Positions 250 through 57,517 of a stretch of 64,000 nucleotides of DNA are shown here, piece by piece. Each line of letters starts with the position of its first letter. Position 1 is the first letter of the stretch. The notes beneath the pieces were generated by a model. It was not told where the DNA came from and did no database searches. It saw nothing but the letters and a program-made list of their open reading frames with translations. The DNA is from a virus, in the IMG/VR virus record IMGVR_UViG_3300013947_000002, positions 34,281-98,280 of that record. One strand, given 5' to 3'. A program made the translations under genes and the position numbers.

Positions 250-1434
250 TCAAAGATAAAATGTTTTACGCCACTCTGCACCATCTTCTGAATATGTAGT
301 AAACATACAGGACGGTCTTGACGCTTTACGAATTTTCTTGGCAAATCCATCAACGCCACATACAGAACCAACTCGCCAGCACAGCTTATCGCCTAGCTCG
401 GTAATACCAGCGTTCTTCATTTCTTGCCGATGCAGATGCCCAACATAGCACTCGTCAACGTCGATATTATATAAGTTCTCAAAATATCGCATTGTCTCGG
501 CTACGTCGCCGCCATCACCATGATGAAGCATAATTGCATTATTTTTAATATACTTAATGGCACAATCTGTATAATCATCAACCGTAATGCCGTCTATTGA
601 CTTTAGTCGCTCTTGTAGATACCATACAATGATTTTACCTAGATTTTCTTCCTCAAACTGTGGTTTAGATGTAAGAATGCGGCAGGTATCATGATTACCC
701 CCGACCATTACAACGTTGACAGGGATTTCAAGCCGGTCATGCAATTCAACAAACCAATCAGCTAGATATTCAGACAACTTGATAACTGTATCAATAACCG
801 GCTCTCTCAGCTTAGTCAGGCTGGACGTGCGTAGAATATTCTCTACACAATCACCAAGCACAGCAACCGTAATATCATCAAGCCAAATGCAGTTATCATC
901 ATTGCACATCTTGTTAAGCAACCCATCAAGCCGCGCCCTCATAATGTTGAAATCGTATTTATTCACAATTTCATTATATGCGCCCTTAATCTCGTAAGTT
1001 GAACCAGCATGAAGGTCTGAAATACAAAGAAGTCCACTCATATTTGTTTGAGGCAATTTATTAAACTCACGAATAGTAAAAGGCTCAAGACATCTAATCG
1101 ACTCTGCAATCCTCTCCTGAATCATGTCAGCTCTTGCGTCTAACCGCTGATTCTGGACATGCTGAATGTTCTCGCTCTGTAATTTCTTGCGCTCTTTCTC
1201 CAACTCAGTCTTCGCTTCTCTGAGTTGGTCTAAAATCTCCGCATCTTTCTCATCTGTCTCGACATCATCTGCACCATTCAGCATATTGCGGACAAACACG
1301 GCGCATCTTCGCAGATATTCGCTTGACCAGACATCCCTATAATCTTCACCAAGACAACGAGCCGTCCATTCTTGCAAGTCAATCAACTTGCTATCTAGTA
1401 GCTCAGTCGCTTGTCGTATCTTCGTTAGATTCAT
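250..1434 (-). CDS. calcineurin-like metallophosphoesterase (Mre11/SbcD-type fold)
   Basis: Translation carries ISDLHAG (DxH), LGDCVEN (GD), GGNHD, LHHGDG and GHLHRQ motifs in the canonical order. Confidence 0.75.
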   Translation of the reverse strand: MNLTKIRQATELLDSKLIDLQEWTARCLGEDYRDVWSSEYLRRCAVFVRNMLNGADDVETDEKDAEILDQLREAKTELEKERKKLQSENIQHVQNQRLDARADMIQERIAESIRCLEPFTIREFNKLPQTNMSGLLCISDLHAGSTYEIKGAYNEIVNKYDFNIMRARLDGLLNKMCNDDNCIWLDDITVAVLGDCVENILRTSSLTKLREPVIDTVIKLSEYLADWFVELHDRLEIPVNVVMVGGNHDTCRILTSKPQFEEENLGKIIVWYLQERLKSIDGITVDDYTDCAIKYIKNNAIMLHHGDGGDVAETMRYFENLYNIDVDECYVGHLHRQEMKNAGITELGDKLCWRVGSVCGVDGFAKKIRKASRPSCMFTTYSEDGAEWRKTFYL

Positions 1435-1966
1435 TCAATTTCCGTTCCTTTTCCTTCTGTTTCCGTTCATATTCCTCTTTTTTCTTATTGATGACATTGA
1501 TAAAATCATCATAGTTCTGTTGCTTTGCCTTTTCCATGCGCTCTTGTGCTCTTTGCTCAAGCGTTTTTCTTGCTGTTCGTTCTGCCTCGGCCTGAGTCAG
1601 CAACTTTAGGTCATTTGGAGTCAACTTGCGCTCACGGACGCGCTTACGGTATTTCTTTGTAACACCGCGCCCATTGACATTGTTAAGAAAATCTTCGTTG
1701 ACTTTGTATAATATTTTAAACCAAGCCGGATTGATTTGCTCAATAAGCTCCCCTTGTTCATTTTTAGCCATCACCCTACGTTCAGGTAATTCCTCCAATG
1801 AGAATGTTCCTACTGCTGGCATTTGACACCTGCCATCAAAATGAAGAATGTGTATAATAGTATCAACAAATCCCATCCAGTATTTCTTGGCAGTCTGGGG
1901 CGATACATTGAGCAATCCACCTGCATAAGTATAAAATTCTTGATTCAGCTTGTTATGTTCGGCCAT
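1403..1966 (-). CDS. HU/IHF-fold DNA-binding protein with basic C-terminal tail
   Basis: MAEHNK start overlaps the upstream stop. The segment GTFSLEELPERRV..NEQGELIEQINPAWFKILYKV resembles the HU beta-arm. Confidence 0.5.
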   Translation of the reverse strand: MAEHNKLNQEFYTYAGGLLNVSPQTAKKYWMGFVDTIIHILHFDGRCQMPAVGTFSLEELPERRVMAKNEQGELIEQINPAWFKILYKVNEDFLNNVNGRGVTKKYRKRVRERKLTPNDLKLLTQAEAERTARKTLEQRAQERMEKAKQQNYDDFINVINKKKEEYERKQKEKERKLNESNEDTTSD

Positions 1967-2378
1967 CTTCTTCTTCCTTAGCAAACTTAGGATTGTCAGG
2001 ATAATTCTCTAGTACCCAAGCGTCCCATTCTTCCTTGGCCGGGCCTTTACCGTACAATGTGCCAGCCTTAACATAACTTGCCATATGTTTCTCGGCCTTG
2101 AACTCTAGCCGATAGTAGCCCTTCCTATCAGGGTAATACATACGCCGCTTCTGAAAGCCGTTCCAATATTCACCCGCTGGCTTGGGCGGATGGTCGCGGA
2201 ACGTAATCACGCCAATGTCAGGCAATGAATACTCGACACCGTGCTGTAGCGTCTCGCGGATGATGTCGTGATATGCCGTTAGCACAATTTCAATAATTTT
2301 TGTGTCAACGCCTGTGCGCCGAATCAGCTCTTTTTTCATATCGGCCTTGCCAAGCCGTGGATATTTATTCTTGTGCAA
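1953..2378 (-). CDS. HU/IHF-like DNA-binding protein (YonN-like position downstream of the RNAP)
   Basis: TTG start 7 nt after GGAAGGAG. KKELIRRTG...IIEIVL...HGVEYSLPDIGVITF is HU-like. Confidence 0.5.
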   Translation of the reverse strand: MHKNKYPRLGKADMKKELIRRTGVDTKIIEIVLTAYHDIIRETLQHGVEYSLPDIGVITFRDHPPKPAGEYWNGFQKRRMYYPDRKGYYRLEFKAEKHMASYVKAGTLYGKGPAKEEWDAWVLENYPDNPKFAKEEEDGRT

Positions 2379-2454
2379 TTATATTGCTCCTTCCCTATTA
2401 CTTTACCACTATATATTGTGGCTGACTCATTTTATCCATATATTTCCTACGATT

Positions 2455-3135
2455 TTAACATATCCCCCGTTCGGACAGGCGGGCTTCACGTGATGCAATG
2501 CGGCGCTGATTATCCGCTTTTTTGCCACACTCCTCAGAGCAATAATGCTGGCATACATCACGTGGTTTGAACCGCTTGCCGCAAATTGGGCAAATTGGAT
2601 TAAGTGTGGCTGCATTGACTTTCAGATTCTCTACAATCTGCTTGCCAAAACAAGCCCACAACATTTTTTTATTGCTTGCTTTCTTAACCGTATATAGATA
2701 CGCCACCAAGCTATTAACCACAACATCCAGTGGCTCTTTGCTGTAATCCACAATATCTTGTGCTATGCACCGATACTTGTACAAATCGTCCTCATTGATA
2801 TGCGGGTCATCGCCATAATCAAATCGGCGCTGATTCTTAATCCAGTAATTATACCGCTCAATGATTGGCGATTCTTCTCGCGTCGTATAATCAACTTGTT
2901 TGTTAATCAGCATTATCCAATCAAACTTCCCAATTTTGTTATTATAGTGGATTCGGGAAGTAGGAATTTTGGCCGATATACGATTCATCGTGGAATTGTT
3001 GGGAGGCTCTACTTGGGTATCCGGGTCTTTGTCTTTGGCGTATTGGAAGAAATTTGGCAATTTGGATTTAGTATATTTTTTTATAATATCTGAAATTTCT
3101 TTTGGCGGTTCCGATTTCCACAATGTCTTTGCGAA
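2455..3135 (-). CDS. YonO-like RNA polymerase, exon 2 (C-terminal part with Zn-ribbon)
   Basis: Frame is open from 3135 with no convincing RBS. Ends with CPICGK..CQHYCSEEC. It lies directly 3' of a group I intron end GGTATTAAAGG. Confidence 0.55.
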   Translation of the reverse strand, partial: FAKTLWKSEPPKEISDIIKKYTKSKLPNFFQYAKDKDPDTQVEPPNNSTMNRISAKIPTSRIHYNNKIGKFDWIMLINKQVDYTTREESPIIERYNYWIKNQRRFDYGDDPHINEDDLYKYRCIAQDIVDYSKEPLDVVVNSLVAYLYTVKKASNKKMLWACFGKQIVENLKVNAATLNPICPICGKRFKPRDVCQHYCSEECGKKADNQRRIASREARLSERGIC

Positions 3136-4146
3136 CCTTTAATACCGTCTCTTTCGAGATACTTTAACACCACTCTAAGCGGTCGGAGTAGACTATCTCT
3201 TCATCTCAATGAGATGGATGGCACTTCGCAAGTAGGAATTTCACCTACAAGCTACACTGAAAACAGTTAGTCGTTACAGCTTCAAATGTTTGATATTTTA
3301 ATTTTCTTGATAACCAAATATCCAATCCTTATGGGTTTTATTTCGTCCGTGTAACACTCTGTCAATACAGGAATAACTTAAATTGCGGTCTTTTGCAAAA
3401 TTTCTAATATTCACAAATTCTACATATTCGCCAGTTTTTAAGTTTCTTCCCCAACACGCCTTTTCGTGCGCCCTAGATGAATTGTCATGCAGGGTGAGCC
3501 ATCTACAATTTTCTGGACAATAATCACCATGTGGATTTATTCTGTCGATAGTCAAATCTTCTTGATAACCATTGGATAACGCCCAATCTCTGAATGTTTC
3601 ATAAGAATTTAACCACTCGTCACAAACCGTAATACCCTTTGCTCCATAATCCGCATAGCTACGAACGTTAGGATTATAGCAACGCGACTTCATATTTGAC
3701 CACGTCCTATAAAGTTTGCTTCGATTGCCAACTATCGCACCACCAGACTCTCCATGACGAGTTTTGTTCTGATGAACTCTCTCAAGTCTTAAACATCCAC
3801 AAGAACGAATTGGTTTATACTGCTGGACTAATTTGTATTTAACAACCTCGACAATGTTGCCGCAATCACACTTGCATACTACAAGTAATTTACCTTCTTT
3901 ATTTCTTTTGTCTGGTAATTCAACAACCGTCAATTTTTCAAATTTATCGCCTATCTTAATTTCATTTGATCTCACACCTAAACCTCCTTTCTTTTATGAT
4001 AACATCAAACATTCGCTTGCCACGGTATTGCCATGCGCTCATGCGTTTAGGGTTTTACCGTTAGCACGGCATATGCCGCACACCCTACATTTGTAGGTTC
4101 ACCATCATTCACATCATATGTCACCATATGAGTGGACTATCGTTTA
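3136..4146 (-). mobile_element. group I intron (about 1.0 kb) carrying a homing-endonuclease ORF
   Basis: Minus strand has P7-like TAACGACTA and GAGATAGTCTACTCC, GCTAACGG..AAACCCTAA (P4-P6-like) and GAACCTACAAATGTAGGGTGTG. All are homologous to the nrdJ and thyX-like introns. Boundaries are accurate to a few nt. Confidence 0.7.
3298..3975 (-). CDS. intron-encoded homing-endonuclease-like protein
   Basis: GTG start after AAGGAGG. Has a CKCDCG..CGC Zn-ribbon and YRTWSNMKSRCYNPN..YGAKGITVCDEW..DRINPHGDYCPENCRW. Paralogs lie at 35030 and 56359. Confidence 0.7.
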   Translation of the reverse strand: MRSNEIKIGDKFEKLTVVELPDKRNKEGKLLVVCKCDCGNIVEVVKYKLVQQYKPIRSCGCLRLERVHQNKTRHGESGGAIVGNRSKLYRTWSNMKSRCYNPNVRSYADYGAKGITVCDEWLNSYETFRDWALSNGYQEDLTIDRINPHGDYCPENCRWLTLHDNSSRAHEKACWGRNLKTGEYVEFVNIRNFAKDRNLSYSCIDRVLHGRNKTHKDWIFGYQEN

Positions 4147-6045
4147 ATCTATAACTTGATTATTCTTCATTGTCAACCAAGCGATAACCTTGATTTGTTC
4201 CTCCGTCATCTTACCGCCATTAGCGTTTTTTACCTTCGAAATTGCATTACTGATAGGGCCGATTGAGCCGCCTGTATATGCTGTACTTACACCTTCATAT
4301 AGCCTGTCTGCGTCGATAATACCACCACGAGCTTTTTTAAGGTCATATGACAGCGGAACAATCCCTTGCATATTGCGCTTTGCTACAGTTGTTAGCGTCT
4401 TATCCTTGACAACTAAAGAAATATCTCCGTCAAAATCTTGCTGCAAGATACGGCTAATCATGTCATGACAACTAAAATAAACACACTTTGTCCCACCCAA
4501 CCATTTATCAGTCAATTCATTTCGCTTGTTGACACGAACGGCGTGTTCTTGGTATAGGTGCGGACTTCTCAGACAATCAAGCTCGTCGCCATCCTTGAAT
4601 TGATTAGTATATACTTCACCATTCTCAAGTAATCCAGTTGGGAATTGTTCACCCTTGAATAACCACTCACAGAACGCCACAGGGTCAGGTGAGATGAACA
4701 AGTATTTGCCATTGATTCTCAATCTACCGCCTTTTGCTTGTTTGACAAGACTTTTTTTAGTTTGCTTTAATATTTCCCGATTGTAAACATCCTTGAATAA
4801 TTCTGGATAAATCGTCAACGCCTCTTGCATGGCTGTTTTTGTCTGATTATACTCAGTTGCCCCAAGCAATCTCATCGTTGTTTGATAGTCACGCCCAACA
4901 CTGTCAATTTCATCTACTGTCTTCGCGATAAGCCGCTCAATTTCATTGTCGGTCATATCGCTCAATGATTGTAGCATCTGATAATTGATTCGAGCCTTTG
5001 GGATATAATCCTCCTCGACTTTGCAGCAACCGAAGTGACAACCATAACTCTTAAAGTTCGACTTGTAGCAGAACCAGCTAGGGTAGAATTTGTACAGCTT
5101 AAACATTGATTTCGTTAGGATATACTGAATATCATCTTCAATGATTTTCCATTCCTTTCCATATATATCCGTAACAGACCAATCATCAGCGGAACAATAT
5201 TCTTTGAGCCATCCTCTAAAATCAAAGTAGGACACCAACCCCTTTATCCACGGGCCGCGCACGATTTGCGTCTTGAATCCGGGCTTACAACACATGCCCC
5301 ACCCGTCAGTTTCAGCTATAACCGTCTCTGATACTTTGCGCGTAATGCTATAATCTGTATAATCAATAAAGTCCGACTCGGCAGTTACCGGCATCTCAAA
5401 ATCATCCACCACTATACACCGGTCTATATCAAAATCGTCCATTCTGTCTGTTGCAGATGCCATAAGGCTCTTATAGCTCAACAGCTTGTTTTCATTCATA
5501 CCGCCCTGAGCGTTAATTGAATCGATGGTTAATCCGCACATGAGCGTCTGCTCAACTTCATTATAGTCTTTTTCCCTAACGGCCATAAACCGCTTTGTGC
5601 GTATCATGCCAGCGCCGCATGAGTAGAAAATGTAATGCTCGCCTTTGTAATTGAAACCATTGTGAATGATGCTATTAAGAATCTCAAAAAAGAACACGTT
5701 GACAATGATTATTTTGTCGCTACGCTCGAACGTCTTGATTCCTAGACTTCGAGTCAACTCAGAACAGAATAGATTGATGATTGTCTTGTCTTTTACTGCG
5801 TCTGGATTGAGTTCTCTAGTAATATTATCTTCGAGAGATTTTTTAAGCAATTTGACAAGTTCGTCTTTATGCTTTTTAATAACACGATTGATAGATGAGA
5901 CACGCCATTTGCGATTTTGCCCATCTTTTTCTCGCATACGCAATGTATATAATTTAACAAGACGATTATGAATGGCTTGTTCATCCGATGTATAGAAAGC
6001 ATCTGTATTGATGGAGGGGATGAAGCAAAACTCTGTTAATGGCAC
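4147..6045 (-). CDS. YonO-like single-subunit RNA polymerase (beta-prime-type DPBB), exon 1
   Basis: LRSPHLYQEH...ILQQDFDGDISLVV matches the RAPTLH...NADFDGD catalytic loop of multisubunit RNAPs. GTG start abuts the upstream stop. Confidence 0.65.
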
Positions 6046-6177
6046 TTAGTAAATCACCTCTAATTCATTTTCTGAACTTCCATATATCCAAAGCGCCCAA
6101 TCGCACTCAGTTGGCTCATATTCATCATCCCATACCTCTGGTTCAGTATCGTCGCGCCGATACCAGTTATAGCTCAT
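6046..6177 (-). CDS. small acidic hypothetical protein (43 aa)
   Basis: ATGA overlap with the Bro gene stop, and its own stop abuts the RNAP start. Confidence 0.35.
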   Translation of the reverse strand: MSYNWYRRDDTEPEVWDDEYEPTECDWALWIYGSSENELEVIY

Positions 6178-6833
6178 TTCGCTCCACAATTCTCCTTATC
6201 ACCTCTTTCCTGCGACTGAATAAACTTGCAAAATTCCTCCATTAGTCCATTGTCTGCAATCCACTCAATCTTTGTCTTATGTTCAGCAACCGCCTTAGTG
6301 TTGATATTATAACCAAGTTGCTTACTGAACCCAATATACATATCGCGCCAAGCATTGTCGGCGTTGTGCTTGTTCATATTATTAGCTCGGATGATATCTC
6401 GCATCAGCCTATAGCAATAAGCGCGGTCGAATTTGACTGGACACGTCTCTTTGAACACACCACTACTGTCAATGTATCGACCATACTTACGAATTGACGG
6501 TAAGACCTCATGTGTGACCCAGCGTCTGAATTTGCGCAACTCGGCTTCGCGCCTTGCAATGTCTTCTTTAGCTGCTCCACGAACCATCTTTGGCTTCATT
6601 ATGAACAACGCCTGATAAAGACCCGGTTCATTGACAGTCAACACCTTCTGCTTTCCGCCAAGGGTGTTCACAATGCGAATACCCTTTTCATCGTCATCGA
6701 GCCGATTTGCGATGTGGCTGACGTTCTTAACATACAAAATATCGCAAATATCCTTTAGTACAAACCAGACCTCACCATCAACTTCTGCGACTCTCACGCC
6801 TTGTGTAGTATATTCAAATTCCTTAAATTCCAT
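6174..6833 (-). CDS. Bro-N domain antirepressor-like protein
   Basis: N-terminus reads VRVAEVDGEVWFVLKDICDILYVKNVSHIANRLDDDEKG..GGKQKVLTVNEPGLYQALF, typical of Bro-N/Ant. Confidence 0.8.
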   Translation of the reverse strand: MEFKEFEYTTQGVRVAEVDGEVWFVLKDICDILYVKNVSHIANRLDDDEKGIRIVNTLGGKQKVLTVNEPGLYQALFIMKPKMVRGAAKEDIARREAELRKFRRWVTHEVLPSIRKYGRYIDSSGVFKETCPVKFDRAYCYRLMRDIIRANNMNKHNADNAWRDMYIGFSKQLGYNINTKAVAEHKTKIEWIADNGLMEEFCKFIQSQERGDKENCGAK

Positions 6834-7229: not shown

Positions 7230-7442
7230 ATGCCACGAACAAAGAAAATTAACCCGCGCGTCCAATATGGCGACACTAGCTGGATTGTCAATGATTGCGG
7301 CAATGGGCAATTCGAGCTGTATAATACCAGCACCAAACAAATTCCAGCAAAGAGTAATAATCCACTGGATTTTGATAAATATATTGACAAAATTTTTGGT
7401 AAGGAGGCGGCTAAGAATGTTCGAGATTTTCAAGCTGAATAA
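7230..7442 (+). CDS. hypothetical protein (70 aa)
   Basis: First ORF after the promoter, preceded by GAGGTG. Confidence 0.45.
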   Translation: MPRTKKINPRVQYGDTSWIVNDCGNGQFELYNTSTKQIPAKSNNPLDFDKYIDKIFGKEAAKNVRDFQAE

Positions 7443-8578: not shown

Positions 8579-9091
8579 ATGACAAGAAAAGAAAAGATTG
8601 ATATTCTTGAATGGTATTGTGACCATTGCGGCGATACTTGTGATGGATGCCCGTTTAATACTGTCGAGAACTATGGATGTGACTTTTCAGAAATGAATGA
8701 CACAAAACTAGACAAGTTGTGTAAACACCTGAATGACGCAGACCAAGCCGCTTATGAAAACGCTGTTAATGAGTATTGTCACACAGAACCAGATGATCTT
8801 GAACTCCATATCGACCCAAAGGCGGCTCGCCACTATGCTATCTGCCAAAAACTCAATGCGGTATATAAGGCTAAGAATCATGATTATGGGGATTCATTTG
8901 GTGATACGTTCAAAAAGCTCGGCATTATCAGCGCAGTGACTCGCCTGAGCGATAAAATGAACCGACTTATGTCACTTGCTGTGGCACACGATGCCCAGGT
9001 AAAAGATGAAAAGATTGAGGATACGCTACTTGACATGGCTAATTATGCAATTATGACGCTGATTGAATTGGGATATGAGGTAGATGAATAA
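8579..9091 (+). CDS. Cys-rich N-terminus plus DUF1599-like domain protein
   Basis: ATG is 8 nt after GAGGAGGA. Contains KNHDYGDSF...RLSDKMNRL...DEKIEDTLLDMANYA. Confidence 0.5.
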   Translation: MTRKEKIDILEWYCDHCGDTCDGCPFNTVENYGCDFSEMNDTKLDKLCKHLNDADQAAYENAVNEYCHTEPDDLELHIDPKAARHYAICQKLNAVYKAKNHDYGDSFGDTFKKLGIISAVTRLSDKMNRLMSLAVAHDAQVKDEKIEDTLLDMANYAIMTLIELGYEVDE

Positions 9092-22373: not shown

Positions 22374-22451
22374 GGTAGGGACGCCAATGTGGTATCGGCA
22401 CCGCCCTTATAAGACGGAGATAGTTTGGTTCGAATCCAACCCCTATCACCA
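22374..22451 (+). tRNA. tRNA-like gene, anticodon UAU (Ile/AUA reader), CCA encoded
   Basis: Acceptor GGTAGGG/CCCTATC (one G-U), D-loop with GG, anticodon loop CTTATAA, T-arm TTGG-TTCGAAT-CCAA, then A-CCA. Deviations are A8, a C-A mismatch in the anticodon stem and one extra T in the T-stem. Confidence 0.55.
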
Positions 22452-23547: not shown

Positions 23548-24555
23548 TGTAAAGATGATGGTGCTACGAAGCCCACAGAGGACACTATCCATGGAGTGCC
23601 GAGCTGGGGAATACAGGAGCAGTAGTAAATGGAGTGAGATGAACAGCCATCATTATATGCCATATGAGGTCTTGAATGCGAATGAGCCAATGGCTGAAAT
23701 TGCTCATCCAGATTTGGAGTAGTATTCAAGATATAACCTTAGCATTGCTCGTGCGAGAGGCAAGCCAAGCTAACTGCATATCCTACGTGGAATGTCTGTC
23801 TTGGATGGAAAAGAGCGAATTAGGGAACGTGCGTGAGATAAATGAGAGAAGCATAAAAGCGGGTCACAGTCGTGTGAAAGACCGTAATGCCAAGTAGGGC
23901 GCACCAGTCAATCTGTTCGGCATAATAAAGGGATTGGGGTTGACGATTATAGAATGGCACATCGGAAAGACGATGATAATATCCGACCGGATTTGAAGAT
24001 AACCGTCAAATCTATATCACGCCTGCACTGGGGTCTGCGCAGAGTTTGAGAAGCGGCAGATACAGACTAGAGAATTGGGGTCGCGCCCAATCGTGCCACG
24101 TTAGCATCCATGCAAAAACGTAACGTCGAAGGTGATATAAGGATGTTATGTAAACAGCATTCACGAGCCGATGCTAGAAGTAGCTATGAGGTAGGAAGTC
24201 GGCTTGAGATTGAATATGGAAGTGTAAGCTAACTGGATAAACCTCGCCAATTTGGTGAGATTGCAAGTTCGATTCTTGTCACTTCTATTCCCCCACATCC
24301 ATCACGCTTCTGTTTAGCATTGCAAGCGTACCACGATGGATGTATAGAAAAGTCTAAAATCCTAGCTTTGTAAGGCTGAACACAAGAATTGGTCACTTGT
24401 GAACGGTCTAGTTTATAAGTTATAATGCTAGTTGCCGAATAGTTGAAAGCTGACCACCTGACGCTATGAGGCAGCGCTCGCCACACTCCCGATTTTAAGA
24501 TGGTTGCGCAACTGTAAATTCAATTTAGCCTGAATTTGTAAGGAGTGTGGCAATT
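23548..24555 (+). ncRNA. candidate giant (~1 kb) structured non-coding RNA
   Basis: No SD-preceded ORF, and the GC content looks higher than the flanks by eye. Nested helices at 23555-61/23647-53, 23940-50/23999-24009, 24296-24309/24324-24342 and 24480-89/24542-51. Confidence 0.6.
24218..24287 (+). other. tRNA-like module embedded in the large RNA
   Basis: Acceptor GGAAGTG/CACTTCT, anticodon-like stem CTCGC/GTGAG with loop CAATTTG, and T-arm GCAAG-TTCGATT-CTTGT. The D-stem is degenerate and no CCA is encoded. Confidence 0.45.
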
Positions 24556-34218: not shown

Positions 34219-34878
34219 ATGGGTATCAGTGTGATGATTTTGGGCGATAGTGGCAGTGGCAAATCTGCCTCTATGCGCAACTTTAGTGGTAACGATGTGG
34301 CGATTCTAAATGTTGCATCCAAGCCGCTCCCATTCCGCAACAAGAATGGGCTAAAGATGGCCAATAAAGCCACATATGAAATGATTAAGGGTGCTGTATC
34401 AAGCAATCGCGCACCGAGCTACGTTATTGATGACGCACAGTACCTTATGGCGTTTGAGAGCTTTGCTAAAGCCAATGAAACAGGATACGGCAAGTTCACC
34501 GTAATGGCTAAGAATTATGAAGAAATGCTGCGTTATGTGCAGGAGGAAACTAGCCCAGATACAATCGTGTATGTTATGCAACATATCGAAACGGATGAAA
34601 ATGGCAAGGTTAAGGCTAAGACGCTAGGCAAGATGCTAGATCAGCAGCTTACAGTAGAGGGGCTATTTACCATTGTCTTGCTTTGCGAGGCAGACGAAAC
34701 CGGGCATCACTTTATCACTCAGTCCGATGGTACAAATCCGGCCAAGTCGCCTATGGGTATGTTTGATTCCGTAAAGATTGATAATGACCTAAAGATGGTT
34801 GATGATGCCATTAGAGACTATTATGGGTTGAAAAAGCCAAAAAATACAAGTAAGTCTACTACGGCAAAAGCCGAGTAA
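34219..34878 (+). CDS. P-loop ATPase (AAA_24/Sak4-like recombination ATPase)
   Basis: Walker A ILGDSGSGKSAS, Walker B-like YVIDDAQ. About 220 aa. Confidence 0.6.
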   Translation: MGISVMILGDSGSGKSASMRNFSGNDVAILNVASKPLPFRNKNGLKMANKATYEMIKGAVSSNRAPSYVIDDAQYLMAFESFAKANETGYGKFTVMAKNYEEMLRYVQEETSPDTIVYVMQHIETDENGKVKAKTLGKMLDQQLTVEGLFTIVLLCEADETGHHFITQSDGTNPAKSPMGMFDSVKIDNDLKMVDDAIRDYYGLKKPKNTSKSTTAKAE

Positions 34879-52385: not shown

Positions 52386-53250
52386 AAACACAATTCTGCC
52401 TCCCTGTGCAGTAATGCACAGTAAAAAATTCTGTGAACCTATAAATATAGGGTGTGGTTTTGACGTTTAGTAGTTATAGGAAATGATAATTAACAAAACC
52501 GCTAACGGGGAAACCTAAGTCAATACGATATGGCAATCCCGTGGAAAGTTGCTTGGTTTAAGAGAAAAAATAAATAAGAGAGGAGGATTCAATGTGAATC
52601 ATGTAGAAATTTCAGATTATCCGGGTTATGAAATTTTTGAAGATGGTCGCGTGTTTTCAAAATATACAAACAAGTTTCTAACATCAAAGATTGATAGATA
52701 CGGATATAGCGTATATCATTTAAGACGTGGTAAAAATGAATTTCCAACAGCGCATAGATTGGTTGCGTTGGCATTTATTCCCAATCCGAATGGTTTTCAA
52801 TCTGTAAACCATAAAGATGGAAATAAACAGAATAATAATAAAGACAATCTTGAGTGGTGTTCTGAATCATATAATAGTTGGCATAAATGCAACATCCTTA
52901 ATGAGAAACCAATCAGATATGGAGATAAACAAGTTGTGGCTAAAAATACAATAACTAACGAAGAGATATTGTTTAATTCAGAATCTGATGCTGCGATATT
53001 CTTTAATGTATCACAAACAACTATCAGTCGAAAAATTTTGACCAAACATATTACACCTAAAAGATGTAAGACACAAAATTGGCTGTTTGAATTTAAGTAA
53101 CTCAAAAACTCTTAAACCAAGTAAAATCTCTAACGACTATCCATAATGGAGTACAGCATAAGCGAAATTCTTATGTTGGAAGTGCAGAACCCCAACAAAT
53201 AGTTGGGTGAAGATATAGTCTAAACTATTATGAAAATAATAGAATCAATG
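52386..53250 (+). mobile_element. group I intron 1 of nrdJ (865 nt) with HNH ORF
   Basis: P1 pairs exon GGAGGT with IGS GCCTCC (52398-403), with U-G at the splice site. P7-like TAACGACTA and GATATAGTCTA. The terminal G is at 53250. Splicing restores KAGG|GIGYAFS. Confidence 0.8.
52594..53100 (+). CDS. intron-encoded HNH homing endonuclease (NUMOD4-like N-terminus)
   Basis: GTG start 7 nt after AGGAGG. Contains ISDYPGYEIFEDGRVFS and VNHKDGNKQNNNKDNLEW. Confidence 0.75.
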   Translation: MNHVEISDYPGYEIFEDGRVFSKYTNKFLTSKIDRYGYSVYHLRRGKNEFPTAHRLVALAFIPNPNGFQSVNHKDGNKQNNNKDNLEWCSESYNSWHKCNILNEKPIRYGDKQVVAKNTITNEEILFNSESDAAIFFNVSQTTISRKILTKHITPKRCKTQNWLFEFK

Positions 53251-53752
53251 GGAATTGGATATGCGTTCAGTAATCTAGCCCCCAATGGCTATAAGACGCG
53301 CAATGACGCTATTGCATCTGGCCCAGTTAGTTTTATGGATGTATTTAATGCTCAGACAGCTACGGTGCAGCAAGGTAGCAGGCGCGGCGCAAACATGGGT
53401 ATGCTCAGTGTGTATCATCCTGACATCCTTGAATTTATACGCGCCAAGTCTGCAACTGAAGGACGGCTTAATCATTTTAATCTATCCGTAGTTGTAGATG
53501 ATGCTTTTATGCAGTTAGTCATTGCCGATGGTCAAGTTCAGTTGCATTGGCCTATTTATGATGAAAAGGGCAATAAGTTACCACCAGCCAAGTGGGATAA
53601 GCAGTTTACCAAGCTAGTGCCAGCTCGTGATATTTGGAATGAAATCATGAAGATGGCATATGATAATGGTGAGCCGGGCGTATTCTATGAGGATAATGCT
53701 AATAACCGCAATCCTGCATGGTATGTAGAAAGAATTGTATGCAGCAATCCGT
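53251..53752 (+). CDS. nrdJ: class II ribonucleotide reductase, exon 2
   Basis: Contains GIGYAFSNL..SGPVSFMDVF..RRGANMGMLSVYHPDILEFI...CSNP. Ends on the first nt of the Cys codon. Confidence 0.8.
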
Positions 53753-53922
53753 TAGCCGTATAAACGTGCGGATGTAAAATCTCCTCTGATTGACTTGGAC
53801 GCTGAATACACAGCTACAAGGGGCAAGGGTAATGCTAGCCTGAACGACTAAGCGAGGAGACCCCAAGGGGATGCGATAGTCTAGCGCACGATGTGAAATG
53901 TATTTGATACACATTGTGTGAG
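53753..53922 (+). mobile_element. ORF-less mini group I intron 2 of nrdJ (170 nt)
   Basis: P1 pairs ATCCGT (53747-52) with GCGGAT (53768-73). P3 CTCCTC/GAGGAG, P7 ACGACTA/TAGTCT, P8 CCCCAAGGGG, terminal G at 53922. Splicing gives SNP-C-A-E (NxCxE). Confidence 0.75.
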
Positions 53923-55463
53923 GCGCTGAATATCTAGCAGGTACAATCAATTCAATCGGCCCGTCGCAGTATGGCGGTGCTTGTAACCTCGGCTCATTGT
54001 TCCTTCATAATTTTGTTCGTAATCCATTTACTAAACAGGCACATCTTGATACTGAAGCCCTACGCGATACAATTTCTATTGCTGTCCGTATGCTTGATGA
54101 TATTATTGATGTCAATAAATTCCCCGACAAGATTTATGAGAATTATCAGAGGGGTATGCGCACCATTGGTATTGGTATTACAGGTCTAGCTGATATGCTT
54201 GCTATGCTAGGCATGAAGTATGACAGTCAAAAAGCAAGAGATTATGTTGAATCTCTAATGCAAATGATTACAAATGCTGAATATTATGCCTCTGTGCAAC
54301 TTGCTAAAGAAAAGGGTTGTTTTCCTCTGTGTGAGCCCGACAAGCATATTGACGGCGCATATGTCAAGGACGTCCTAGAAAAAGACGTACTCGATGAAAT
54401 GGCCGAGTACGGTATTCGCAATGCCAAGATTCAAGCCGTTGCCCCATGTGGCACAATCTCTATAGTATTCGGGAACAACTGCTCTAGCGGCATTGAGCCG
54501 ATTTTCTCTCTGAGTTATGACCGCAAGGCAAAGATTGGCGGTCAGGATGATAAGGATGTCAAAATCGTCAAGATGATGGACTACGCTTATTATCTATATC
54601 ATAAGCTGAAAGATGAAGGCAAGCTCCTAGATTTTGATGAACATGATATTTTCCCAACCGCTCTCAATATGTCTGTTGATGACCATGTAGCTATGCTTGC
54701 CATTATTAGCAAATACACCGACATGAGCGTTAGCAAGACAATCAACGTTCCTACTGAAGCATCGTTTAATGAAGTCAAGGACATTTATATGCAATGCTGG
54801 GAAAAAGGCATTAAGGGTTGCACCATCTTTAGACCTAATGCTATTCGTCAGGGCATTTTGCTGACTGATAATAAGCAAGGCGAAGAAAAATCTGAATCGA
54901 TGGAACCACCAACTCTCCCTCGCGGTTCAATCATCGAGCCAAGCAATGACCTGATTGGCAAAAAGCGCAAGATTCAGACAGGATGTGGCAGCTTACACGT
55001 CATCGGCTTCTTTGACCCCATTGATGGCAGTCTACAAGAGGTATATTTCAACAAAGGCTCGACAGGCGGATGCCAGAATTTCATGGTTGGTCTGAGTCGC
55101 GCAATCAGCCTACTATGCCGTGCCGGTGTAGATATTATGACCATCAAAGACCAGCTTGATTCAACAGGTGTATGCCCCTCTTATGCTACGCGCAGAGCAA
55201 CCAACCATGATACCAGTAAGGGGTCTTGTTGCCCCATGGCTATTGGCAATGCTCTAGTTGATATGTATAATGAGATGCAAGCAGAGCTAGATGATAAAGA
55301 GGATGACGATAAGCCGGTAAAGAAAGTACCGATTAAATCCGAGATTGGCAAAGTAAACGTATTAAATACGAACAATGGTGTATGCCCTGAATGTGGCGAA
55401 CCGCTTGTGTTTGAGGGCGGTTGCTGCACCTGTAAGTCATGTGGATATACAAAGTGCGAATAA
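53923..55463 (+). CDS. nrdJ: class II ribonucleotide reductase, exon 3
   Basis: Starts (C)AEYLAG...YGGACNLGSLFL. C-terminal CPECGEPLVFEGGCCTCKSCG Zn-ribbon. Confidence 0.8.
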
Positions 55464-56160: not shown

Positions 56161-57181
56161 TAACATAAAAGTGCCCTTACATAGTAATATGTATTGAAAA
56201 CTCCGTTAACTTGTAATTGCAAGGTGTGAAGTTAACTTTTTAAGGTCGGCAAGGAAATATGCCGTTTATAACTTTGCTAACAGGGGAAATCTAAGGTTGA
56301 CACTATGACAACCCTGTGCTATAATTAAAATGTCCAGAGAAAGAAGGAGGTGAGAATTTTGAAGAAAATTAACATAGTTAACAATATTTATTCTTCCAAT
56401 CATTACGGTGATTTTATTGTAGAGAAAGAGCTAAATTCGCAAGGAACAAGCACATATTATCAAGTCCGCTTTTTGAAAACTGGTACAGTATGCAAGGCTG
56501 AAAAACATAACATTAAAAAAGGTTCCGTAGCCGATTGCTATGCTAAAACAATTTATGGTGTTGCTTGTCGAGGGCAAGCATCTTCCAGACATCCTACTTT
56601 AAACAAAGTAGCTTTTAAGCGTTGGACGGCTATGGTGTCCCGTTGTTATAATCAAAATGATATTGGTTATAAATCTTATGGTGGTAAAGGTTATACCGTA
56701 TCTGATAGTTGGCTTTGTTTTGAAAATTATATACGAGACATTGTTGATATTGAAGGTTTTAATGAAGAAAAATATCTCAAAGGCATCATTCAATTGGATA
56801 AAGATATTAAAGCCCCCGGTAACAAAGAATATTCTGCCGACAAGTGCATATTTCTAAATGCTTCTATTAATAAGAGAAATCAACCTTCAAAGCAAAGAGA
56901 TTTTTATGCTATTTCACCACAAGGACAACAATTCATATATAATAACGCTAATGCCTGTGCCAAAGAAAACAACCTAACCGCAAGAACTATCTTAAAATGT
57001 TTGAAAGGTCAATTCTCACAACACAAAGGCTGGACATTCAAATATGTAGTCTAACGACTATCTCGAAAGAGAGTAGAGCAATTATGAAATGAATTGCTCG
57101 AAAAGCGGAGAACCCATATCTTTATGGGTTGTGATATAGTCTACTCCCCTAATAAATATCGGGAAACCGAGGGTATAAAGG
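56161..57181 (+). mobile_element. group I intron (1021 nt) with homing-endonuclease ORF
   Basis: IGS GTGC (56171-74) pairs with exon GCAT. GCTAACAGGGGAAATCTAAGG, CTAACGACTA and GATATAGTCTACTCC. The 3' end GGGTATAAAGG is homologous to the RNAP intron. Confidence 0.75.
56359..57054 (+). CDS. intron-encoded homing-endonuclease-like protein
   Basis: TTG start 8 nt after AGGAGG. FKRWTAMVSRCYNQND..YGGKGYTVSDSW. Paralog of the 3298 and 35030 genes. Confidence 0.65.
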   Translation: MKKINIVNNIYSSNHYGDFIVEKELNSQGTSTYYQVRFLKTGTVCKAEKHNIKKGSVADCYAKTIYGVACRGQASSRHPTLNKVAFKRWTAMVSRCYNQNDIGYKSYGGKGYTVSDSWLCFENYIRDIVDIEGFNEEKYLKGIIQLDKDIKAPGNKEYSADKCIFLNASINKRNQPSKQRDFYAISPQGQQFIYNNANACAKENNLTARTILKCLKGQFSQHKGWTFKYVV

Positions 57182-57517
57182 TTTGTACGTCATCATATCG
57201 GTTGTAACCACTATGTCCAATCTCAGAGAAATGATAGACAAGATAAATACGACCGTAACAAAGCGCCGCAAGATGAGCTAGTCAGTCATGTTATGTCGAT
57301 TAACGCCCAAGAGCTTGTATTTATGTCCCATAAGCGCCTGTGCAATCAAGCATCTCCTGAAACACATAAGGTAATGCAACAGATTGTTGATGAGGTGATT
57401 AAAACTAATCCTGAATTTAAGGATTATCTAGTGCCGTTATGTGAATATAGAGGCGGTTTATGCACCGAGTTCCATCCATGTGGATATAATAAAAAATTTA
57501 AGGAGAAGCAAGAATGA
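57182..57517 (+). CDS. ThyX-like protein, exon 2
   Basis: Starts FVRHHIGCNHYVQSQRND (a divergent RHR..S..SxR motif) and continues NAQELVFMSHKRLCNQASPETHKVM. Confidence 0.5.
   Translation, partial: FVRHHIGCNHYVQSQRNDRQDKYDRNKAPQDELVSHVMSINAQELVFMSHKRLCNQASPETHKVMQQIVDEVIKTNPEFKDYLVPLCEYRGGLCTEFHPCGYNKKFKEKQE

Follow-up and report, generated by a model that had tools for sequence, protein, structure and literature searches.

We analyzed a stretch of 64,000 nucleotides (nt) from a virus in the IMG/VR database (record IMGVR_UViG_3300013947_000002, positions 34,281 to 98,280), which is referred to below as the window. Between positions 2455 and 6045 on its minus strand lies what is very probably one gene for a YonO-type RNA polymerase, with a mobile group I intron of the IA type inserted behind codon 633. 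The annotation of this region is corrected accordingly: what are called as three genes are a single gene for an RNA polymerase and, inside it, a mobile intron that carries an endonuclease. Continuity of the gene, its exact boundaries, a ribozyme fold with covariation, the fold of the endonuclease, and a patchy distribution of the intron among relatives were all observed. The main components of the locus are as follows.

4147–6045, minus strand: exon 1 (633 codons) of the gene for the YonO-type RNA polymerase, with a GTG start behind GAGGTG; the open reading frame (ORF) including its stop spans 4144–6045; RSP motif at residues 493–495 and catalytic DFDGD at residues 537–541
3136–4146, minus strand: predicted group I intron, 1,011 nt, which opens with an in-frame TAA and whose last base is G
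3298–3975, minus strand: putative homing endonuclease ORF within the intron, 225 amino acids (aa), which starts with GTG; AGGAGG is found at 3983–3988
2455–3135, minus strand: exon 2, 226 codons plus TAA, which begins with FAKTLWKSEPP and has neither a start codon nor a ribosome-binding site at its 5′ end

Exons and Predicted Splice Junction

An interrupted polymerase gene had been proposed in a sequence-only reading of the window, on the basis of a 633-codon ORF with catalytic-loop motifs, an open 226-codon frame without a credible ribosome-binding site, and a homing endonuclease ORF between them. All of these features were recovered, and the proposed interpretation is supported. The motifs RSPHLY and DFDGD begin at residues 493 and 537 of the longer ORF, the shorter frame (2455–3135, minus strand) contains a TTG at 3123, 12 nt downstream of the closest purine-rich run, and the endonuclease ORF (3298–3975, minus strand) is preceded by an AGGAGG ribosome-binding site. 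The proposed joining of 4147 to 3135 is also in frame and gives a product of 859 aa, compared with 839 aa for YonO.

The position of the break is well defined by intact relatives. In a tblastn search with the intact SPbeta YonO (839 aa), residues 8–625 end at window position 4147 and residues 626–839 restart at 3135, which places the break at YonO residues 625|626 (here and below, the vertical bar marks an exon junction or an insertion site). The 847 positions of PHROG 8308 are divided between the two parts in a similar way: 7–644 are covered by exon 1 and 645–844 by exon 2, and there is neither a gap nor an overlap between them. PHROG 8308 is matched at 1e-200. When joined, the 859-aa protein matches SPBc2 YonO in a single piece over residues 3–856 (40.5% identity, E value 5e-174). 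In a collection of 5.8 billion proteins, we detected uninterrupted homologs of 859–862 aa which are 91–93% identical to the joined protein and span 99–100% of it. The alignment proposed as a check in the sequence-only reading thus came out in favor: the conceptual splice product matches both YonO and these intact homologs from end to end, across the junction.

At the junction itself, the uninterrupted homologs read WLTMKNNQ[V/I]ID|FAKTLWKSEPPKE, i.e., NNQ[VI]ID|FAKTLWKSEPP, and five further database proteins stop exactly at NNQVID. At the DNA level, intron-less alleles with the sequence ATTATTGAT|TTTGCGAAA (ATTGAT|TTTGCG) are present in 12 of 14 related IMG/VR contigs of ∼90 kilobases (kb). 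The intron 3′ end, GGTATTAAAGG| (terminal letters AAAGG|), directly precedes the start of exon 2, TTCGCAAAG, and the predicted ligated junction in the RNA of the window is CAAGTTATAGAT|TTCGCAAAGACA. Because the intact homologs and the intron-less alleles match, the boundaries 4147|4146 and 3136|3135 are fixed by comparison, beyond what the reading frame itself implies. Precise excision gives a continuous conserved frame on which both kinds of relatives agree exactly, and a shift of one base in either boundary would break the U/G splice-site rule or change the encoded Asp.

In six lineages with the intron, no stop interrupts exon 2 for 215–229 codons counted from the 3′ splice site. Its ratio of nonsynonymous to synonymous substitutions (dN/dS) is 0.09 in comparison with lineage L012; in comparison with the others, synonymous sites are saturated and the proportion of nonsynonymous differences (pN) is 0.19–0.27. 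These sequence comparisons indicate that exon 2 is under purifying selection. Thus, positions 4147–6045 and 2455–3135 of the minus strand are identified, at the sequence level, as two exons of one YonO-type RNA polymerase gene.

The Predicted Polymerase

In an alignment of 48 sequences, residues R493, P495, D537, D539, G540, and D541 are invariant. The same residues have been given as invariant across all two-barrel RNA polymerases (PMC2919709), and the aspartate triad has been found to be catalytic in SPbeta YonO with the use of a 3D>3N mutant (PMC5467207). The C-terminal end of the protein, encoded by exon 2, contains a Cys4 zinc-ribbon-like motif (CPICG at residue 815), and many homologs carry Pfam PF05183.

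The 48-sequence alignment was also used to model the joined protein with AlphaFold2, which gave a mean predicted local distance difference test score (pLDDT) of 82.6 and a predicted template modeling score (pTM) of 0.79. Foldseek comparison of this model with the PDB gave 20 significant matches, all of which are RDR2 (maize, Arabidopsis) or QDE-1 (Neurospora, Thielavia), with E values from 2e-18 to 6e-12 over 680–990 aligned columns. Multisubunit beta′ chains appeared in the fold search only with E values above 1, and a PDB sequence search with the spliced protein did not find a solved structure of YonO or a relative. The junction, 633|634, is located within a single continuous helix of the model (residues 615–637), and the residues around it include invariant N628, N629, I632, and D633 on one side and K636 and T637 on the other. 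The sequence-only reading had suggested examining whether the fold would be continuous; the predicted structure indeed continues across the junction and resembles two-barrel RNA polymerases. We guess that helix 615–637 might be the equivalent of the bridge helix. Based on these comparisons, the gene product is predicted to be a YonO-type single-chain two-barrel RNA polymerase. Among polymerases of this type, only SPbeta YonO is known to synthesize RNA on DNA and to transcribe late phage genes.

Predicted Ribozyme Structure and Covariation

The group I core strings cited in the sequence-only reading (TAACGACTA, GAGATAGTCTACTCC, and GCTAACGG..AAACCCTAA) are all present at the places given there. 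The predicted elements of the ribozyme are listed below.

4135–4149, minus strand: P1, in which exon GAU (4149–4147) and intron UA (4146–4145) pair with the guide UAGUC (4139–4135)
3976–4134, minus strand: 5′ half of the ribozyme, with P2 (4131–4114), the outer P3 strand GAUGG (4106–4102), and two extra hairpins (4097–4084 and 4079–4066)
5′ half, continued, minus strand: inner P3 strand GUGC (4067–4064), P4/P5a/P4′ (4061–4020), and P6 with the 5′ strand of P6a (4015–4004)
3136–3294, minus strand: 3′ half of the ribozyme, with the 3′ strand of P6a (3294–3283), the P7 5′ strand GACUA (3272–3268), P7.1 (3267–3256), and P7.2 (3252–3228)
3′ half, continued, minus strand: P3 3′ strand GUGCCAUC (3224–3217), P8 (3216–3202), and J8/7 with the P7 3′ strand, GAAGAGAUAGUC (about 3201–3190)
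3′ half, end, minus strand: P9 (3183–3169), P9.1 (3159–3148), and the terminal G (3136)

This structure (P1, P2, a two-part P3, the two extra hairpins, P4, P5a, P6, P6a, P7, P7.1, P7.2, P8, P9, and P9.1) was drawn up after seven distinct intron variants, including two from Bacillus phages, had been aligned with MAFFT without their ORF-bearing loops, and its pairs were then counted in the alignment. Standard pairs were found in 95.6% of the cells, versus 30–48% when the 3′ partners were slid by 1–3 columns. Changes on both sides were observed for 41 of the 81 pairs, versus 4–8 in the slid controls, and none of 500 shuffles reached the observed value. Some cells of helices 5, 6, and 10 are unpaired, which reflects the cut loops and a faulty MAFFT alignment of P4–P5 across the two intron clades, and not real mismatches.

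P3, P4, P6, P7, and P8 are all paired, with double-sided changes in P3, P6, P7, and P8. For example, P3 is GAUGG/CCAUC in the clade of the window versus GUCAG/CUGAC in the Bacillus clade, and P7 is GACUA/UAGUC versus GACCA/UGGUC. In P1, where none of the five pairs varies among the seven variants, the splice-site U forms part of a U.G wobble; this U.G together with the terminal intron G agrees with the splice-site rule of group I introns. With regard to the helices of subgroup IA, all four pairs of P7.1 and five of the seven pairs of P7.2 are changed on both sides, and the presence of both helices places the intron in subgroup IA. On this evidence the intervening 1,011 nt is predicted to be a group I intron of an IA-like subgroup.

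A different P3 proposed by Rfam (UGCUA/GUGCC) was set aside in favor of the two-part P3, as it contains non-canonical pairs. The outer part of the two-part P3 covaries; the inner part (GUGC/GYGC) has one-sided changes only and fails in one variant (L011).

Related introns appear to be common. The P7.2 motif GGTGAAATTCCTN6GAAGNGC was detected in at least 119 IMG/VR viral contigs (including loci L026–L105). In megablast searches, large Bacillus phages (phiNIT1, SIOphi, SBSphiJ, Moonbeam, and others) have unannotated stretches which share 87% identity with the 3′ core of the intron over 60–66 nt. The spread of the motif and the matches of the 3′ core therefore suggest that the intron belongs to a widespread phage intron family. 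The motif hits point to IA-type introns that are very widespread in phages and poorly detected by the Intron_gpI model.

The Endonuclease ORF

The ORF at 3298–3975 lies wholly within the terminal loop of P6a (709 nt, intron positions 144–852), which is closed by a 12-bp stem (CGAAUGUUUGAU/AUCAAACAUUUG). Its product matches PHROG families of HNH endonucleases at 1e-57 to 1e-19 and has more than 4,000 relatives in the protein collection. An AlphaFold model of this protein has a pLDDT of 90.7, and its sole significant PDB match is I-HmuI (1U3E; E value 4.6e-5, 115 columns). A PDB sequence search gave no match, so that I-HmuI was seen by fold comparison only. The protein is predicted from its modeled fold to be an I-HmuI-like endonuclease. 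Both its location in a peripheral loop and the sporadic occurrence of intron-plus and intron-minus alleles are as in mobile introns.

Distribution of the Intron

The intron is present at the same site in the other 2 of the 14 related IMG/VR contigs mentioned above. An ORF-bearing intron of 1,007–1,011 nt occupies this site in five lineages (L005–7, L010/11, L012, and L020), and an ORF-less intron of 290 nt was found there in one lineage (L008/L009). The intron-less allele of L024 reads AACAATCAAATTATTGAT|TTTGCGAAAACGTTG at the site and contains AACAATCAAATTATTGATTTTGCGAAAACG. The intron DNA is 99.8% identical in the independent IMG/VR contig L012, and the same architecture was found in ENA and Logan contigs from several samples. 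Among the samples with this genome are ENA ERZ26858129 and ERZ26858487 and SRA SRR29834368. Contigs with an identical endonuclease have coverage labels of 577x and 2322x; therefore, this genome type is abundant in metagenomes. The relatives derive from human gut metagenomes, such as Hadza samples, and a scan of 185,579 reference bacterial genomes did not find a prophage relative.

We also looked for a signature of co-conversion, i.e., a step in identity exactly at the intron site. No such step was found between the window and its relatives, and the comparison of SPbeta with SPR/Goe14 showed a gradual decay from about 100–250 nt downstream, so that neither comparison gives a clean signature. 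In the latter comparison, the 1,875 nt upstream are 97–100% identical between the yonO alleles, and downstream the identity starts at ∼98% and gradually drops, reaching 58% at the 3′ end. This pattern suggests that the 3′ end is mosaic and was possibly gained together with the intron, although the break is not exactly at the junction.

Alternative Explanations

Several observations weigh against an active mobile intron at this locus. The window copy scores 15.5 bits with the Rfam Intron_gpI model (RF00028; E value 0.52 in a 1.5-kb search), which is sub-threshold. At the gathering score (50 bits), a search of the whole window returned only one transfer RNA (tRNA) and no intron, and even the 290-nt ORF-less copy of L009, with 32 bits (E value 1.2e-6), is below this score. 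The intron is thus visible only in permissive, short-range Rfam searches. Within the fold, the two hairpins between outer and inner P3 are outside the textbook core, and helix naming there is provisional; P1 is short, with only three exon base pairs. A convincing P10 between the 3′ exon and the guide region was sought, and 2–4 pairs at most were found, in a register that varies between variants. As for the endonuclease, Pfam HNH models do not match it, the Pfam I-HmuI NUMOD-like match reaches 21.6 bits versus a cut-off of 27 bits, and the motif reads DR..N, with the invariant R145 in place of the usual first His of HNH. Because of the absent Pfam HNH match and the Arg at this position, the protein is called I-HmuI-like, and its catalytic competence is not certain.

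The Rfam gathering score is an operational criterion rather than a biological definition, and the Intron_gpI model includes neither the 709-nt ORF-bearing loop nor the extra hairpins. The L009 copy lines up with the Rfam consensus at both the R element, GUAACGACUA, and the S element, GAAGAGAUAGUC. A search with Intron_gpI, which the sequence-only reading had put forward as a check, therefore gave a divided answer: the window copy stays below the threshold, and the ORF-less relative is recognized with a significant E value, with covariation backing the fold.

A gene split by a free-standing endonuclease insertion, in which the 633-aa part and a part of roughly 222 aa are translated separately and assemble without any splicing, is very unlikely in our view. 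The model for such an arrangement is the fragmented nrdA of phage Aeh1 (PMC3045599). The TTG at 3123 would start the 222-aa product, gene callers in both GenBank and metagenomes annotate the parts separately, and purifying selection on exon 2 would be predicted in this case too. However, this TTG is four codons inside the conserved FAKTLWK motif and has no purine-rich run closer upstream than the 12 nt noted above, and the junction falls midway along a predicted helix, where it is flanked on each side by invariant residues. Moreover, the 290-nt version at the same site lacks the ORF, and the sequence on either side of the endonuclease ORF forms a ribozyme fold that is conserved through compensatory changes; a plain insertion would not preserve such a fold. 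Some of the points raised above, namely the sub-threshold Rfam score and the short P1 and P10, would also suit a decayed intron whose ribozyme no longer splices, leaving a polymerase pseudogene or the truncated 633-aa protein only. We consider decay equally improbable: the core helices, 95.6% paired, are compensated across lineages whose cores are 58–84% identical, exon 2 is intact and under apparent purifying selection in six intron-bearing lineages, and the genome type is abundant in metagenomes. Least probable, to the point of being negligible, is an assembly artifact or a chance juxtaposition of unrelated ORFs. It is effectively refuted by independent assemblies, as the same architecture occurs in L012 and in the ENA and Logan contigs, and at least five more lineages have divergent copies. 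The open and selected exon 2, the compensated helices, and the coverage are indirect evidence, which agrees better with a polymerase that is spliced and expressed than with a pseudogene or with an enzyme made of two polypeptides.

Proposed Mechanism

For a polymerase gene interrupted by a group I intron, we infer splicing, the activity and target of the endonuclease, and any effect on the timing of late transcription, as follows. The pre-mRNA would fold into the P3–P9 core, and exogenous guanosine bound at P7 would attack the phosphate after the U of the U.G pair in P1 (4147|4146). The terminal intron G (3136) would then take the place of the guanosine, and the exons would be ligated to encode the 859-aa polymerase. 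Translation of unspliced RNA would stop at the opening TAA of the intron and yield a truncated product of 633 aa. For the 225-aa I-HmuI-like endonuclease, translation would start from a separate ribosome-binding site, within the P6a loop. The enzyme would presumably nick or cut intron-less alleles in co-infecting relatives, and repair would copy the intron into them (homing).

The sequence-only reading also suggested that late transcription would depend on ribozyme activity, which is a reasonable inference when extrapolated from the biology of SPbeta YonO. The intron may also be phenotypically near-neutral, like other phage introns. A broader and rather doubtful idea is that the YonO-type gene might be a recurrent battleground of introns, with at least two independent sites (the ID|FAKT helix and the D|xDGD triad of the relatives L145/L146, described below) and three endonuclease types. 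The endonuclease might then disable the polymerase of a co-infecting competitor, as for PhiPA3 gp210, and splicing might act as a timer or checkpoint for the late switch. The endonuclease types are I-HmuI-like (window), GIY-YIG (SPbeta-like phages, same site), and HNH_3 (DxDGD site), and their hosts range from Bacillus SPbeta-like phages to gut phages.

Gene Neighborhood and Other Introns

The genes directly downstream of the polymerase gene are as follows.

1953–2378, minus strand: HU-family DNA-binding protein gene, directly downstream, at the yonN position of SPbeta; Pfam Bac_DNA_binding 24 bits versus a cut-off of 22.4
1403–1984, minus strand: 193-aa ORF, weakly HU/YonN-like (pairwise YonN match, E value 6e-4)
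250–1434, minus strand: metallophosphoesterase or exonuclease gene, at the yonJ position of SPbeta-like phages

Two HU-like genes had been claimed here. The claim holds for the ORF at 1953–2378, whose Pfam match is above the cut-off, and does not hold to the same degree for the ORF at 1403–1984, which has no Pfam match and only the weak similarity to YonN listed above. Synteny with SPbeta is partial and consists of a small ORF upstream and, downstream, the HU-family gene, the weakly HU-like 193-aa ORF, and the metallophosphoesterase gene.

Across the window (7267–58328, plus strand, and 250–6833, minus strand), we found genes for DNA polymerase III alpha, DnaB-like and RecD-like helicases, ribonucleotide reductase, dUTPase, a Bro-N anti-repressor-like protein, HU, and the YonJ-like phosphoesterase. 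This predicted gene content resembles that of a distant, smaller (about 90–96 kb) SPbeta-like phage. Two tRNA genes are located on the plus strand, at 22374–22448 (36.9 bits, permissive search only) and at 24218–24287 (30.9 bits, gathering threshold). Rfam SR6 antitoxin, skipping-rope, and DUF3800-VIII RNAs are located around yonO of SPbeta-like phages, e.g., at 1571–1674, 7324–7433, and 8630–8695 of the Goe14 locus (L001); an Rfam search did not find them in the window.

Further introns were observed in the window. A group I intron with a 234-aa I-HmuI-like ORF (56350–57054) is present at about 56200–57182 on the plus strand. This ORF is 28% identical to the endonuclease of the yonO intron over 145 aligned aa. 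The sequence-only reading had compared the end of the yonO intron with that of an intron in a thyX-like gene, and this end, GGGTATAAAGG, was confirmed at 57171–57181 (plus strand), behind the same GAAA-capped hairpin. The 3′ end of this intron, TCGGGAAACCGAGGGTATAAAGG|TT, is nearly identical to that of the SPR yonO intron; the label thyX-like for the interrupted gene comes from that reading only. In addition, the gene for the ribonucleotide reductase large subunit (52440–55460, plus strand) is in at least three pieces (53230–53760, 53997–55460, and one upstream). One of its gaps contains an intron with an HNH_3 ORF (52549–53100), for which Intron_gpI gives 34.8 bits at 53133–53242, and the gap at 53764–53996 looks like an ORF-less group I intron of roughly 233 nt (GAACGACTAAG ... 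GCGATAGTCTAG).

A second intron site was seen in the YonO-like genes of two relatives (L145, 4001–7580; L146, 3681–7260). In both, RILQFD| closes exon 1, next come a 212-aa HNH_3 ORF and motifs resembling a group I core, and |CDGDKTLV is where exon 2 takes up again. Judging from these exon ends, the insertion is therefore inside the catalytic DxDGD triad, a site which is reminiscent of that of the PhiPA3 gp210 intron.

Comparison with Known Systems

The closest counterparts are found in SPbeta-like Bacillus phages, whose polymerases are only about 40% identical to that of the window. The yonO genes of phi3T, SPR, vB_BsuS-Goe11/Goe14, BUCT083, and SPbetaL3–L7 have an insertion at the same codon (625|626, ID|FAKT), which is absent from SPbeta/SPBc2, Goe12/13, and SPbetaL1/2/8. 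The ribozyme core of these insertions is homologous to that of the window (58% identical), with helices kept by compensatory changes, and the two groups share 5′ GAT|TAA...ATAGTC and 3′ GGTAT.AAAG|. The SPR yonO intron scores 19.7 bits with Intron_gpI (E value 0.0094). The Bacillus phage copies are either ORF-less (400 nt) or contain a 300-aa GIY-YIG endonuclease in the P4–P5 loop, whereas the window has an I-HmuI-like ORF in P6a. In GenBank, the interrupted genes are labeled yonO_1/hypothetical/yonO_2 or hypothetical proteins. The same correction of annotation applies to phi3T, SPR, Goe11/14, and BUCT083, where yonO is given as two genes or as hypothetical proteins.

Literature searches on yonO combined with intron or homing endonuclease, and on group I intron combined with phi3T, did not find, in the library searched, a published description of an intron in yonO. 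Two SPbeta reviews name the bnrdE/F introns only, and neither phage nor RNA polymerase occurs in the text of a 2025 paper on a group I intron database. The introns of YonO-type genes are thus visible in databases and apparently undescribed in print. As phi3T (intron-plus) and SPbeta (intron-minus) are genetically tractable and share B. subtilis as a host, they form a convenient experimental pair for asking whether the intron delays or gates late transcription, whether the endonuclease drives homing, and whether co-infecting phages interfere with each other as in PhiPA3. Otherwise, the present case is one more phage group I intron at a conserved site of an essential gene, a kind long known, including in SPbeta's ribonucleotide reductase genes.

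Several described introns share features with that of the window. The only significant PDB match of the window endonuclease is I-HmuI, which nicks one DNA strand and belongs to an intron of SPO1, where the host gene is that for DNA polymerase. The intron of T4 td is a classic phage intron of the IA type, in which unspliced RNA gives a truncated protein. It also has an endonuclease ORF in the P6a loop, P7.1/P7.2, and an in-frame stop near the 5′ splice site; however, its host gene encodes thymidylate synthase and its endonuclease is the GIY-YIG enzyme I-TevI. The group I introns of SPbeta bnrdE/bnrdF, which are in essential nucleotide-metabolism genes (Lazarevic et al. 1998, as cited in PMC8270828), come from the same phage lineage but are in other genes and at other sites; the window has ribonucleotide reductase introns as well.

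Another comparison is with PhiPA3, in which a group I intron with the I-HmuI-related HNH endonuclease gp210 interrupts gp211/209, the gene for a subunit of the virion RNA polymerase (Birkholz et al. 2024, PMC11620839). This endonuclease nicks the polymerase gene of the competitor PhiKZ, and both its homing-site specificity and the competitive advantage were shown experimentally (PMC11620839). The predicted intron of the window, with its I-HmuI-like endonuclease, is likewise at a highly conserved site of a gene for a phage two-barrel RNA polymerase. On the other hand, in PhiPA3 the polymerase is a multisubunit, beta′-like enzyme of a jumbo Pseudomonas phage and the insertion borders the catalytic aspartates, whereas the window, known here from sequence alone, encodes a single-chain YonO/RdRP-like polymerase with the site about 90 residues past DFDGD. 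Such an intron, together with an I-HmuI-related endonuclease, was thus already on record for the RNA polymerase gene of a phage, PhiPA3, and the window supplies a sound further example of this known kind.

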